Source: Escherichia coli (GTDB lineage Bacteria; Pseudomonadota; Gammaproteobacteria; Enterobacterales; Enterobacteriaceae). From it: a stretch of 5,588 bases of DNA. Positions 122-5,588 of the stretch are shown here, piece after piece. Made by a program: the position numbers and the translations under genes. The notes beneath the pieces are model-generated. The model saw only the letters and a program-made list of their open reading frames with translations, was not told the origin of the DNA and did not search any database. Location of the stretch: NCBI RefSeq assembly GCF_003334785.1, contig NZ_QOWV01000043.1, one strand, 5' to 3'. Each line of letters opens with the position of its first letter. The first letter of the stretch is position 1.

Positions 122-1141
122 TTACTTCCTTCGCTTGTGTTCAAGATATTTCTCTGTAATCAGCATTTCAAAAAACTCTCCTGTTCTCAGACCGTAAACA
201 GTTCTGAGCTCATCAAGCATTTCTTTCACATTGCTTCTTATATGTATATTAATGGCCTTTTTACCATCACTCCGATATTTTTCCTTTTGTTTTTTCTGAT
301 GCCAGGCATGATTTATTCGTGTTCTGAACAGTTCAATGGTATCAGGCACTTCTTTCCATAAAGCAAAGGCGACAAGAGAGGCAAGATAATATTCTTTCGT
401 TGAAGATGGTATGAACCACCGGGTCACTGGGTTATGTACCGGATGTGTTTCATCCTGTTTTTGTTTCAGTCTTGTCCAGAACCACTGACACATTTCATCA
501 TCGTCAGGAAGGAGCCACTTAAACTTTTGACAAGCGCTTTTCTTTTTAAGCCACGCCTGCCTGAGTTCCTCGAGGTATATGCTTTTTGCATTTTTATTAA
601 TTAAAGAATGGCAGGAGTCAAAATATGAAATGATTACTTTTATTCGTTCGTTATGGGATGATGGATTATCCGGAAGGTTACTTTTTTTGTAAGTGTTTAA
701 CGTTTCATCGGTAACTGTTCGTATTTTTCTGACTTCAATTCCGTTTTTTATTCCTGATGAATTATGGTTTATTTTCGGGAAATTTGTATGATCTTCCTTC
801 GACAGATAAATAGTAGTCCAGGTAAAGAAAGTCGCAAGTTCGTCAGTTTTCAACCAGAGAAAACTCTCTTCAGGCAGTATTGCCTGCCCTGCAATAATTT
901 CAAGTTCATTAATTTCTTTGCTGAGAGTTTCTTCTGCAGTCGAACCAAAAACACCAAAAGAATTGTTTGAAGCTTTATAATACTTTTCTTTTAAAAACGA
1001 ATTAACATTTCTGATACAGTTTTGTGGGTTGTCAGGCGCAAACTGAGGGAATTCATTGGGGTATTTGTGATTCAGATATTCGGCATAAAACCGACATTTA
1101 CGGGGATCTTTGCATTTGATAAGCATCTGTTCGTTATTCAT
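122..1141 (-). CDS. Hypothetical protein, 339 aa; Cys-containing N-terminus and a C-terminal ribbon-helix-helix-like segment (by-eye inference)
   Basis: A 340-codon open frame in AT-rich DNA (about 32% G+C in a hand-counted sample at 601-660), where stop codons are frequent, so it is unlikely to be chance. ATG at 1139-1141 is preceded by GGAG (reverse complement of plus 1149-1152) with a 7-nt spacer. The terminator at 27-68 follows the stop. C-terminal residues KAINIHIRSNVKEMLDELRTVYGLRTGEFFEMLITEKYL show a strand-helix-turn-helix pattern reminiscent of Arc/MetJ/CopG/NikR N-domain. No catalytic motif recognised. Confidence 0.8.
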   Translation of the reverse strand: MNNEQMLIKCKDPRKCRFYAEYLNHKYPNEFPQFAPDNPQNCIRNVNSFLKEKYYKASNNSFGVFGSTAEETLSKEINELEIIAGQAILPEESFLWLKTDELATFFTWTTIYLSKEDHTNFPKINHNSSGIKNGIEVRKIRTVTDETLNTYKKSNLPDNPSSHNERIKVIISYFDSCHSLINKNAKSIYLEELRQAWLKKKSACQKFKWLLPDDDEMCQWFWTRLKQKQDETHPVHNPVTRWFIPSSTKEYYLASLVAFALWKEVPDTIELFRTRINHAWHQKKQKEKYRSDGKKAINIHIRSNVKEMLDELRTVYGLRTGEFFEMLITEKYLEHKRRK

Positions 1142-1470
1142 TATCTCACTCCATGTCGCCTCTCTTATAACAAAATCGTCTCAATTTTATTTTGTCACTA
1201 AGTGATTATCAAATGTTTTTGTTGTGATTTGCTTATGTTGTTAAATGTCTATGTCATGTTATCAGTGTTTTTATATAAAGATATATTGATATTTTTATGA
1301 TGGTGAAAAATCATATTTTCTTTTATATTCATTTGGTTATGCTTGTTTGTTCTGCATTTTGGGGATGACAGAAAAGAATGGGCTGTGTTGATCACATGCG
1401 CCGTATGCGCTCTCCAGGTTACAGCGCACCTCAATATTCAGTGTTTTCCTGTTGACTGGCATTGTTAATC

Positions 1471-1546
1471 TTATGTTTTGGTTTTGTTTTATTGTGTGGT
1501 TGTGAATGTTGTGTTTAGTTTGATGGTTGAGAAAGAAAAAAGAAGA
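1471..1546 (+). repeat. 76-nt cytosine-free GT-rich tract ending in an 18-nt purine run
   Basis: By direct reading there is no C on the plus strand between the c at 1470 and the c at 1547. The tract is rich in tgtt/ttgt/gttt units and ends with gagaaagaaaaaagaaga (1529-1546). The minus strand is correspondingly G-free and CA-rich. Confidence 0.6.
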
Positions 1547-2152
1547 CTATGATGCACTAATCAGGAAATATTTTCGACGCCGGTTGAGTTAAAAGAACAG
1601 ATAGAGTGGACAGGTGTTGTGTTAATAGTTTACGGCTGACAGTATTCTTATTTTAATAACAGGTGTTATTATTTATGGATTTATACAGACGATACTCCCG
1701 ATAAATAGTCAGGTGATGATGGTCGTTGAGTGGTTTTATAAGCTACGTATAGCTCTGTAAGACTTATTAATTCAACGATGACTACCGTTTATTGATATAC
1801 CTGTATTCGGGAAATGTCATAAAAAATGTCACGTTGTTTGCAGAATCTTTTGTTTTTTAGTTTCTGATACGCAATGACTAAGCAGGAGGACTCACTTTGT
1901 TTGTATGCTGAGCGTGATCGCCAGTGGAGATGAACAATTGACTCTTACATTGAAAAATATACTCTTTTGTATTTTATCGTTTATCCGCATGAAGTAAATA
2001 ATCTTCAGCAATGTTATTTATGTAAATATTATCATCTCACCCTGAGTGTTCATTTTATCAGTGTGATATTCCATTGTTTACTGATGAAATTAACCGATAA
2101 GTGATCTTGTTAAGATTGCCAGAACGACAGTTTTTGCTGAGTCCGTGCAATG

Positions 2153-2267
2153 GAAGATGTGTTATATCATCTATTTAAGCAATAAGTTTAATACAGATTT
2201 CAGAAGATGTGTTGGTGAGTTGATGACTGATTTTCAGAGGGGTATGGGAAAGTGTATGGGATCCCAT
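2153..2267. repeat. Short direct repeats plus a 12-bp perfect palindrome
   Basis: gaagatgtgtt occurs at 2153-2163 and again at 2203-2213 (11 bp, 50-bp spacing). gtatggga occurs at 2242-2249 and 2254-2261 (12-bp period), the second copy running into the perfect palindrome atgggatcccat (2256-2267). Confidence 0.5.
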
Positions 2268-2438
2268 AAAGAAAAAATCGTTATTGTTCAGTTGACGTAT
2301 ATTTCCGGGTGATGGCTCCAGTCAGCAGAACATGTGTTTTTCGATGAATGACCCAATAACTTTTTCGTGAATTTCCACGGAGCGTGAAAAGCAAATCGTT
2401 TTTCGGTCCAGTCGTTTGATGCGGGAACGGAGTGTCAG

Positions 2439-2723
2439 ATGGTGGTGCTCAATACGCCGGGTAAATATCAATACGATTTGAGGAACCATTTGCTGGTTAA
2501 TCTCTTTCCGATAGCATTGGATGCAGAAATAACTACATCCAATGTAAATAAGCATCAATTGCACAGAAGCAATATACCTGCGGCCCTCTCCGGAAATTCC
2601 GGTATCACTGACTACGTACCGTTTTCAGCAGAACGAAATGCGGCGATGGTCATTTGGCGGACAGCCATAGATAGCCGTCCGGCTGTGTGTAACGATGAGG
2701 AAGGAACCCCGGGAACGTTATGA
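2439..2723 (+). CDS. Hypothetical 94-aa ORF, convergent with the 190-aa gene (uncertain)
   Basis: ATG at 2439 preceded by GGAG (2429-2432) with a 6-nt spacer. It lies in a G+C-normal segment, and its translation looks more protein-like than the overlapping minus-strand ORF 2322..2564, which is Cys/His/Arg/Ile-heavy. Its stop at 2721-2723 is 1 nt from the stop of the 190-aa gene (2725-2727). No recognisable family. Confidence 0.3.
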   Translation: MVVLNTPGKYQYDLRNHLLVNLFPIALDAEITTSNVNKHQLHRSNIPAALSGNSGITDYVPFSAERNAAMVIWRTAIDSRPAVCNDEEGTPGTL

Positions 2724-2724
2724 A

Positions 2725-3297
2725 TCAACAGGCGTATAACAGGTACTCGTCAATCATCAGTTCCAGCTCGCGCTTTTCCCGTTTGCGCGCCACAGCCCAG
2801 TTTTCAAGCTCTGCATGTGATTTATGCTTTAACTCTTCAGTCCAGGGCTGCATGGAGTGGGCACACATCAGATCATACCAGCACAGCCATATTAGCGTGT
2901 GGTAGAGATCACGATCGTCGAAACGCCGGAGCAGGCTGTTCAGCCTGTTTGCCAGCCGGCTTTCGCCCAGACGATGTAGCTCACTGAGTAAAACGCCGCC
3001 CAGATTAAAATGCGTAAGCAGCATGATTTCATGGGTCTGAATGCTGGTCATTAACCCTTCCTGAATGGCAGGAATGAACGGTGGCGTTCCCGGGTTGACG
3101 ACCTGATAGAGTCCCTGTGGTGCCACTGAGATGATGGTGCCTTTTTCCGGTAGAAAAAAGTGGGCCAGGGTCAGGCGGTGATAACCATGAAGATGCGGAG
3201 AGCCCATTCCATGAGCGACAATAAACCGGGTTACACTTGCCATCCATTTCTGATGCTGAATTAGCAGCAGATCACACCGGTTTTCAAGTTTTTGCAT
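2725..3297 (-). CDS. Hypothetical protein, 190 aa, likely co-transcribed downstream of alpA
   Basis: ATG at 3295-3297 preceded by AGGAG (reverse complement of plus 3306-3310) with an 8-nt spacer. It starts 85 bp after the alpA stop on the same strand, with no terminator visible between them. G+C resembles alpA. In enterobacterial islands the gene after alpA is often annotated as an inovirus Gp2 / YfjJ-YagK-type protein, but I cannot confirm that from sequence memory. Confidence 0.75.
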   Translation of the reverse strand: MQKLENRCDLLLIQHQKWMASVTRFIVAHGMGSPHLHGYHRLTLAHFFLPEKGTIISVAPQGLYQVVNPGTPPFIPAIQEGLMTSIQTHEIMLLTHFNLGGVLLSELHRLGESRLANRLNSLLRRFDDRDLYHTLIWLCWYDLMCAHSMQPWTEELKHKSHAELENWAVARKREKRELELMIDEYLLYAC

Positions 3298-3382: not shown

Positions 3383-3589
3383 TTACGGACGGGATTGTGC
3401 AATACGCGCCTGCAACCAGGCTTCCACTTCACTTTTCAGCCATCGGGAGCTGCGGCCGAGTTTGATGGGGGCCGGAAAGGCACCATCTTTGATGAGCTTA
3501 TAAAACCACTTATCGGTTAAGCCGGTCAGTTGAGTGATAAACGCCATGTCGACCATCTGGTCATCCATCAGCGAAACTGGGGTCTTCAT
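3383..3589 (-). CDS. alpA: AlpA-family phage/island transcriptional regulator (excision activator-like), 68 aa
   Basis: Translation MKTPVSLMDDQMVDMAFITQLTGLTDKWFYKLIKDGAFPAPIKLGRSSRWLKSEVEAWLQARIAQSRP carries the characteristic AlpA/Vis-type helix-turn-helix signature (LTGL...Y.LIK.G.FP.PIKLG..S.RW...EVEAWL). ATG at 3587-3589 is preceded by GGAGG (reverse complement of plus 3599-3603) with a 9-nt spacer. Size is typical of the family. Confidence 0.88.
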   Translation of the reverse strand: MKTPVSLMDDQMVDMAFITQLTGLTDKWFYKLIKDGAFPAPIKLGRSSRWLKSEVEAWLQARIAQSRP

Positions 3590-3971: not shown

Positions 3972-4763
3972 TTATTCTCTGTAATTACAAACAACAGTGA
4001 TCTGATCCGGTTTTTTTACCGTTACGGGTTTCCGGGGATCAATTTTATAGACCGGGGTAATGACCACGCCGGAATTTATGGAGAAAAGCGGGATCCAGCA
4101 ATAAACGTCCGGATATTTCTGTGTCTCCGGAATACCTTTTGCGCCAGAGGCCATCAGATCTTTAACGCTCACGAAAAATGACTGCCGCAGATCAAAAAAG
4201 TACTCGTCATATATCACGTCTTTTGCCAGCAGGATGACTGCATTACCAACAGCCACTTTTACAGGTGTTTCGCCCGATGGATTATCGTGATTGTATATTG
4301 TTCTTTCGATATAAATAAAACAGGCATATTTCGTCTTCTCCCCGGATAGCTGCATCTGGTATTCGCAAATGTCTTTGATATACCGACTTTCAACCCTTCC
4401 AATCATCTTATCCCGGCGATAGTGTCTTTTATGTTTCAGCGCGTACAGAACACCATTTGAACTGTCAAACTCCAGGACTCTTCTGGTGAAAAGTTTGTTT
4501 TCCCAGATTTCCAGACAATACTTCTCTGCACTGACGACATTGCGTTTGCGAGGAAGATCCCGTTGATACACTCCATTTAATAAGCGTGACTGCAGTTCGC
4601 CTGCAAGTTGATAATAACAGTTAATATCGTTAAGGACAGGTGCTGTGGCGCTGAGTAATGCGTCGATTACCTTAGAGCGCGAAAGTTTGTGGGTATGACA
4701 GTACTCATCCACAATTCGCAGCGTCTCATCACTAGTCATATTGAAAGTTATACGTGTTGTCAT
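3972..4763 (-). CDS. Hypothetical protein, 263 aa; N-terminal ribbon-helix-helix DNA-binding domain fused to a C-terminal domain of about 220 aa with unknown function
   Basis: A 264-codon open frame (about 43% G+C in a hand-counted sample at 4201-4260). ATG at 4761-4763 is the first possible in-frame start, since an in-frame stop lies 6 codons upstream. N-terminal residues TRITFNMTSDETLRIVDEYCHTHKLSRSKVIDALLSAT match a strand-helix-turn-helix RHH pattern (compare the NikR N-domain RVTITLDDDLLETLD...). No obvious Shine-Dalgarno: the upstream sequence is aacagaaaacttcatcATG. Confidence 0.75.
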   Translation of the reverse strand: MTTRITFNMTSDETLRIVDEYCHTHKLSRSKVIDALLSATAPVLNDINCYYQLAGELQSRLLNGVYQRDLPRKRNVVSAEKYCLEIWENKLFTRRVLEFDSSNGVLYALKHKRHYRRDKMIGRVESRYIKDICEYQMQLSGEKTKYACFIYIERTIYNHDNPSGETPVKVAVGNAVILLAKDVIYDEYFFDLRQSFFVSVKDLMASGAKGIPETQKYPDVYCWIPLFSINSGVVITPVYKIDPRKPVTVKKPDQITVVCNYRE

Positions 4764-5437: not shown

Positions 5438-5588
5438 ATTGTGATCGTAAAAAGTATACCTTATGCCATTAAACAGTCTTCTGGAGTGTTGTTTACTAGT
5501 AAGCGACTCGTCAGAACCGTATTGATATTTACTGAGAGCTCAGATCAACTTTCCAGGGCAACAGATCGCGTACCCGGTTTGCCGGCCA

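Follow-up and report, generated by a model that had tools for sequence, protein, structure and literature searches.

An integrative island of Escherichia coli carries, downstream of a conserved 190-aa gene, a segment (2300-2727) across which a 94-aa plus-strand open reading frame (ORF) runs towards the stop codon of that gene. The question raised by this locus is what the segment holds: an initial annotation had offered two options, a real small gene in convergent orientation and what remains of a truncated backbone gene, and had placed a likely cargo junction at its left edge. Our analysis indicates that, in all likelihood, 2300-2727 holds no gene and is made up of the scar of an IS1-family element and of native intergenic island DNA, both non-functional, and that the 94-aa ORF arose by chance.

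Genomic context

The window, by which we mean the whole stretch of 5,588 nucleotides that was analysed, matches the chromosome of E. coli strain 300709 (L001) at 99.9% identity, an IS3 insertion in 300709 aside, and the host island is an integrative one located near dcuS and cadC on the E. coli chromosome. All local genes read on the minus strand, namely a GTPase-family gene just outside the window, the 339-aa gene, the 190-aa gene, the AlpA-type gene and the 263-aa gene (Table 1). The 190-aa gene was found in 1015 of 5426 E. coli genomes, and its product, encoded directly downstream of the alpA-like gene, shows the marks of strong purifying selection (dN/dS ~0.1; variable sites 3:3:26 over the codon phases). 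No Pfam, NCBIfam, PHROG or PADLOC match was obtained for this protein, and we regard the gene as a conserved island gene with a predicted protein without family match.

Several further features of the surroundings were observed. Residues 6-33 of the 263-aa protein match weakly the model of the aCcr1 family cell-cycle regulator (E=0.0025), nothing else in it being recognisable; the gene is intact in the window and is interrupted by an IS3-family element at window position ~4697 in strain 300709 (L001 14798-16130). The longest ORF in the AT-rich spacer (1142-2307) is at most 61 aa, and the spacer is 92-95% identical among carriers. A piece of the alpA-like gene (3495-3520) is matched in inverted orientation by the spacer at 1724-1744 (19/21) and at 2090-2108 (17/19), matches that may be due to chance or may be traces of an old alpA-like copy.

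Table 1. Coordinates of the features discussed in the text (window positions)
Feature	Position	Strand	Remarks
339-aa gene	122-1141	-	
ORF-poor AT-rich spacer	1142-2307		34% G+C, ~1.16 kb; upstream of the 339-aa gene
Left copy of the 8-bp target-site duplication	2300-2307		TATTTCCG; three-way comparison with L018 and L017
Truncated IS1-family element, 162-bp right end	2308-2469	-	PGAP, blastn, Pfam
Right terminal inverted repeat	2308-2330		GGTGATGGCTCCAGTCAGCAGAA; outer end of the element at 2308
Last ~49 InsB codons	2468-2325	-	Stop codon 2324-2322
80-aa ORF	2322-2564	-	InsB C-terminal remnant reading in frame into native DNA past the junction; pseudogene fragment
94-aa ORF	2439-2723	+	Judged spurious; codons 1-10 antisense to the IS1 remnant, codons 11-94 in native DNA
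Proposed deletion junction	2462-2469		TAAATATC; the one copy left of an 8-bp direct repeat
Native intergenic island DNA	2470-2706		Found in this island type only
Start of block common to all islands with the 190-aa gene	2707-2727	-	CCCGGGAACGTTATGAATCA; includes stop 2725-2727
190-aa gene	2725-3297	-	Stop codon 2725-2727
AlpA-type excisionase or regulator gene (alpA-like)	3383-3589	-	
263-aa gene	3972-4763	-	

The right end of an IS1-family element

The left part of the segment is the end of an insertion sequence, a fragment that is already annotated in RefSeq, where the PGAP entry for 2322-2468 (minus strand) is an 'IS1 family transposase' pseudogene that lacks the N-terminus. By blastn, 2305-2469 is 84% identical to the IS1-like copy of O157:H7 SS17 (L002), which has its full length but is degenerate, and both blastn and alignment show the DNA homology to IS1-like copies breaking abruptly at 2469. 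The minus-frame translation matches Pfam DDE_Tnp_IS1 (PF03400) over model positions 70-130 of 131 (E=7.2e-21), the alignment spanning the residues encoded by 2513-2325; the C-terminal half of the DDE domain is present, and the N-terminal half, with most of the catalytic residues, is missing. The NCBIfam model transpos_IS1 (NF033558) gave 17.8 bits, far under its cutoff of 100, a low score of the kind that a fragment should give. Searches for IS1 homology beyond 2469 (Pfam in the minus frames; tblastn against the L002 element) returned nothing past 2513, and Pfam found no InsA or other IS1 match in any of the three minus frames of 2470-2727. The initial annotation had reported no long ORF on the alpA strand here; in fact it overlooked an 80-aa minus-strand ORF at 2322-2564, which begins in the native DNA on the far side of the junction and ends with the stop codon of InsB.

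The outer end of the remnant is equally characteristic of the family. IS1 inverted repeats are recognised as ~23 bp starting GGT(G/A)ATG; the remnant starts GGTGATGG at its outer end, as IS1 elements do, the sequence at 2308 reading GGTGATGGCTCC..., and 2308-2330 lines up, base by base, with the ends of the L002 copy and of the IS1A found in the same genome. Such a repeat is present at one end only. The orientation also agrees with that of the family, in which the transposase reads inward from the left repeat and its 3' end abuts the right repeat. IS1A-type elements are 768 bp long, with InsA and InsB' joined by frameshifting (PMC8944449). In contrast to a complete element, with its ~768 bp, two inverted repeats, insA and frameshift site, the remnant keeps 162 bp (~21% of the element) and is without InsA, the frameshift site, most of the DDE domain and the left inverted repeat.

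Over these 162 bp the remnant is 95.7% identical to a copy at the same site in L017 (strain E2), 84.6% identical to L002 and 66% identical to IS1A, which also occurs as a full copy at a distance of 9 kb in L001; over full copies, identity to IS1A is 62-69%. On sequence identity, the remnant belongs to a divergent IS1-family lineage. Among the alleles compared it shows 18 polymorphic sites and frameshifting indels, with codon phases of 7:5:3, and it evolves neutrally. Every divergent IS1-like copy that we examined (L002 2504-3266; L017 1812-2498; L016) was degenerate, showing internal stops, frameshifts or the loss of ~80-100 bp from within the element; at 80-90% identity, the remnant has matches in ~1066 E. 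coli records.

Base composition can be read against this background. The G+C content of 2300-2727, previously put at about 58%, is 46.3%; no 100-bp window within the segment exceeds 53%, and the 190-aa gene, at 51%, lies above the segment mean. A composition step near 2300 does exist in the sense that the left flank (1142-2299 or 1142-2307) has 33.9-34.0% G+C, but it is not the sharp one first described, the rise being gradual (39%, 43%, 48%) and followed by a dip to 37% at 2450-2549. The G+C content rises near 2300 because the IS1 end (47%) abuts the 34% spacer; the relatively G+C-rich sub-segment 2622-2706 (52%) is not accounted for in this way. The suggestion of a junction at ~2300 was right insofar as an insertion junction is located there, with the inverted repeat beginning at 2308, but what was inserted is an insertion sequence and not cargo. 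Further junctions were located at 2469/2470, where the deletion discussed below is placed, and at 2706/2707, the boundary of the shared backbone.

Three allelic states and the origin of the window form

Variants of the ORF that diverge to the left of 2469 in a six-frame search led us to three allelic states at this site: an empty site, a near-full IS1-like copy and the truncated remnant seen in the window, which is the form in most of the 244 genomes that carry the native segment. The empty site, a form found in 3 of 5426 genomes, is represented by L018 (strain SC407) and L015, in which the native segment is contiguous with the AT-rich region and no IS1 lies between them; it reads, from the AT-rich spacer onwards, ...GACGTA TATTGCTG TTGTTGCAGG...(72 bp)...GAAAAA TAAATATC AATACG.... 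At the same site L017 has a 687-bp near-full IS1-like pseudogene copy, in the order TATTTCCG, IS1-like copy, TGTTTCTG-TTATTGCAGCG, and L016 has an IS1-like copy that runs off the contig at its outer end.

Elements of the IS1 family generate a short direct target duplication of 8-9 bp, and this trait is seen here in the alleles of relatives. The 8-bp repeats that flank the L017 copy read as such a duplication whose two copies have since drifted: they agree at 6 of 8 positions, and each copy, like the empty site, is one base from TATTTCTG. The window retains the left copy only.

The inner edge of the remnant coincides with a second repeat. L016 holds both copies of TAAATATC, one inside the IS1-like element (GGGTAAATATCCTGCC) and the other in the native flank (AAAAATAAATATCAATACG), the native copy lying 80 bp beyond the left inverted repeat (a distance measured in L017). 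When the window was compared with L016 by BLAST, 2354-2469 and 2462-2619 flanked a 607-bp insert and overlapped by the same 8 bp. In L017 the internal repeat reads GTAATATC, not GTAAATATC, and L016 is therefore the one allele from which the mechanism of the deletion is deduced.

A deletion between the two repeats is the simplest reading of the window form. The sequences of the three states and of the junctions are observed directly; the order of events and the repeat-mediated mechanism we infer as follows. In the ancestral island, the 339-aa and 190-aa genes would have been separated by a non-coding gap of ~1.5 kb, as they are in the empty-site allele. A divergent IS1-family element would have inserted at ~2300-2307, its transposase reading on the same strand as alpA, and would have duplicated the 8-bp target. 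In the lineage of the window, a deletion between the TAAATATC copies, located at IS1 positions 155-162 and in native DNA, would have taken about three-quarters of the element, one copy of the target duplication and 72 bp of native DNA, and the outcome would be the present fusion of the 162-bp right end (2308-2469) to native DNA (2470-2706). The product resembles microhomology-mediated (illegitimate) IS scars in that its junction retains once an 8-bp sequence that the undeleted allele has twice; it differs from them in that the mechanism is here deduced from sequence alone and that both copies are intact only in L016. An inverted match between 2461-2478 and 5515-5532 (17/18) was also considered as the signature of an inversion and was rejected, being within chance for AT-rich sequence by a rough estimate; an inversion is not needed, because the allele series accounts for the junction.

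Native intergenic DNA and the edge of an exchangeable module

Of 5426 complete E. coli genomes, 244 contain a match to the DNA on the right of the junction, 2470-2706, and every such match lies in this island; plasmid DNA gave none. An 85-86-bp segment of it (2622-2706) is missing from about half of the 244 carriers. Pfam gave no hit in any minus frame of the native segment, searches with NCBIfam, PHROGs and PADLOC gave no family hit for any frame of 2470-2727, and a six-frame, word-index-free phmmer search against 1.84 billion representative proteins returned only ORFs from the same locus. Across eight full-length alleles, 30 of the 251 sites in 2470-2720 are polymorphic (12%) and are spread 11:11:8 over the codon phases, against 32 of 570 sites (5.6%) and 3:3:26 in the 190-aa gene used as a control, the counts for the segment being small (30 sites; 14-17 substitutions per pair). 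So even a phase spread argues against constraint in any of the six frames, which means that 2470-2720 does not mirror a working gene on the minus strand either. This pattern points to neutral evolution of the native segment.

The idea of a truncated gene remnant, raised initially for the segment as a whole, thus holds for 2308-2469, where the truncated gene is an IS1 transposase, and fails for 2470-2706, for which no parent gene appeared in any frame. Such a parent might nevertheless have decayed beyond recognition: downstream of the 190-aa gene there may once have been an older gene, coded on one strand or the other, of which 2470-2706 would be the residue. The 52% G+C of 2622-2706, which is like that of the neighbouring genes and unlike that of the 34% spacer, would fit this history, as would the real convergent gene, yfjI, that other island types hold at the equivalent position; yet tblastn of YfjI against the region found nothing, the Pfam and phmmer searches just described yielded neither a family match in the minus frames nor an ORF from another locus, and E. 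coli genomes and plasmids contain no DNA match outside the island. We consider such an ancestry unlikely. It would, moreover, be compatible with the main explanation, the DNA being non-functional either way.

The right edge of the native segment coincides with a boundary between island types. Homology to the ST131/Nissle-type island L011 starts at window position 2707 (CCCGGGA...), ~18 bp past the 190-aa stop, and this is also where alleles without 2622-2706 rejoin. In most of the 1015 genomes that have the 190-aa gene, a different module lies downstream of it. In ST131/Nissle-type islands (L011 1887-3498), a convergent 497-aa yfjI replaces the 339-aa gene, the spacer and this segment. From this arrangement, the ST131/Nissle-type island and the island studied here would be related by module exchange, and the edge of the exchangeable module can be placed ~18 bp downstream of the 190-aa stop codon. 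Like the 94-aa ORF, yfjI lies downstream of the 190-aa gene in convergent orientation and terminates close to the backbone boundary; in contrast to the ORF, it is a conserved gene, and the two share no DNA or protein similarity, on which ground we rejected the ORF as a yfjI remnant.

Regulatory signals and RNA folding

A scan of 2100-2900 detected no promoter-like (sigma-70-like) site and no intrinsic terminator, the hairpins at 2658-2681 and 2514-2545 having no U tract. Rfam gave no match at E up to 1 across the whole window, and the sequence that follows the 190-aa stop is no more stably folded than its shuffles (z = -0.6). In the hairpin at 2514-2545, CATTGGATG pairs with CATCCAATG over 10 to 12 bp, depending on the strand, with z ~ -3.8 on both strands; its stems are invariant among alleles, and 4 loop positions vary. 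An IS21 junction at ~2509 (L008) and an IS3 junction at 2524 (L010) lie near it, and the hairpin may be an insertion hotspot, or the proximity may be a coincidence.

The 94-aa ORF as a probable chance frame

The ORF itself is present as first described, at 2439-2723, with a GGAG at 2428-2431, 6 nt before its ATG (2439), and with a stop (2721-2723) 1 nt from the 190-aa stop (2725-2727). Both the ATG and the GGAG are inside the IS1 remnant, antisense to InsB, so that the start is an accident of the fusion, which put these antisense signals in frame with a pre-existing stop-free native stretch and so created the 94-aa ORF. The empty-site allele has no ATG and offers a TTG start only, and L017 offers internal TTG starts only. 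PGAP names the ORF of the window hypothetical protein WP_000261147.1 and calls a 92-aa TTG-start protein in the empty-site allele.

Homologs among 5.8 billion proteins are restricted to E. coli, with at least 80% identity and lengths of 60-161 aa, and their N- and C-termini are many and varied as a result of local rearrangements; no homolog outside E. coli was found among the 5.8 billion and the 1.84 billion proteins. A test for purifying selection in the 94-aa frame did not detect the expected excess of third-position changes (11:11:8), and pairwise dN/dS was 0.55-0.76 versus 0.10 for the 190-aa gene. Nor is the frame intact across close relatives, an outcome that the initial annotation had itself named as a refutation: codon 11 is a stop in L004, about half of the carriers have an altered C-terminus through the 85-86-bp deletion, and the frame is interrupted by IS21 in L008 and by IS3 in L010. 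Complete ORFs of at least 94 aa appeared in 10.5% (2300-2760) to 17.6% (2250-2800) of 2000 dinucleotide-preserving shuffles, and the length of the ORF is therefore no evidence of a gene.

We judge the 94-aa ORF to be a spurious frame, and the genuine small convergent gene of the initial annotation finds no support. The ORF shares with other spurious or orphan 'hypothetical protein' ORFs its confinement to one species, its lack of a domain, its variable ends, its neutral pattern and its inconsistent annotation; it differs in being, at 94 aa, somewhat longer than typical chance ORFs, a length that shuffles nevertheless reach at the frequencies given above.

The 94-aa ORF or its core of 84 codons could be conceived as a genuine young E. 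coli-restricted small gene, convergent with the 190-aa gene, whose N-terminus was replaced by fusion with the IS1 remnant. The open frame with its ATG and its GGAG at 6-nt spacing would suit such a gene; the core (~84 codons from KYQYDL) is open in L005, L006, L007, L014, L017 and L018, at up to ~8% divergence, and PGAP annotates the ORF in several genomes. Against these points stand the codon phases and dN/dS values, the restriction of homologs to E. coli in both protein sets, a start codon that changes from the antisense-IS1 ATG to the TTG of the empty site and the internal TTG of L017, the stop in L004, the partial loss in about half of the carriers, the IS21 and IS3 interruptions, the lack of a promoter-like site and the ease with which shuffles yield this length, and taken together they make a young gene highly improbable. 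About as improbable is the more specific idea that the stop-free 84-codon core, open in all three allelic states, is a very young E. coli proto-gene that was given an ATG and a Shine-Dalgarno motif by the antisense strand of the IS1 remnant; if true, a proto-gene would here have obtained its translation signals from an IS scar.

The view that all of 2308-2727 is one degenerate IS1-family element, with the 94-aa ORF as an antisense shadow of its transposase, could appeal to the Pfam alignment that reaches 2513, 44 bp past the DNA homology break, to a 20/24 match between 2704-2727 and the InsA region of L002 (E=0.011 in a small search) and to an extended InsB domain that would finish near 2720, but it has already been refuted by the empty-site and full-insertion alleles: L018 and L015 join 2462-2727 straight to the AT-rich spacer without IS1, the L017 copy (and that of L016) ends with the left inverted repeat 80 bp before 2462, Pfam finds no IS1 match in any frame of 2514-2727, and the 20/24 match is a chance one, sitting in sequence common to ST131-type islands that are IS1-free at this site.

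Implications

The finding is an ordinary one that does not change the understanding of any system, and its main value is for clean annotation. Neither WP_000261147.1 nor its many variants of other lengths are likely to be real proteins, and the eye-catching rise in G+C content marks the end of an insertion sequence and not a cargo boundary. For the IS1 family, the tidy series formed by the empty site, the full insertion and what we take to be a repeat-mediated deletion documents how its elements decay in E. coli islands.
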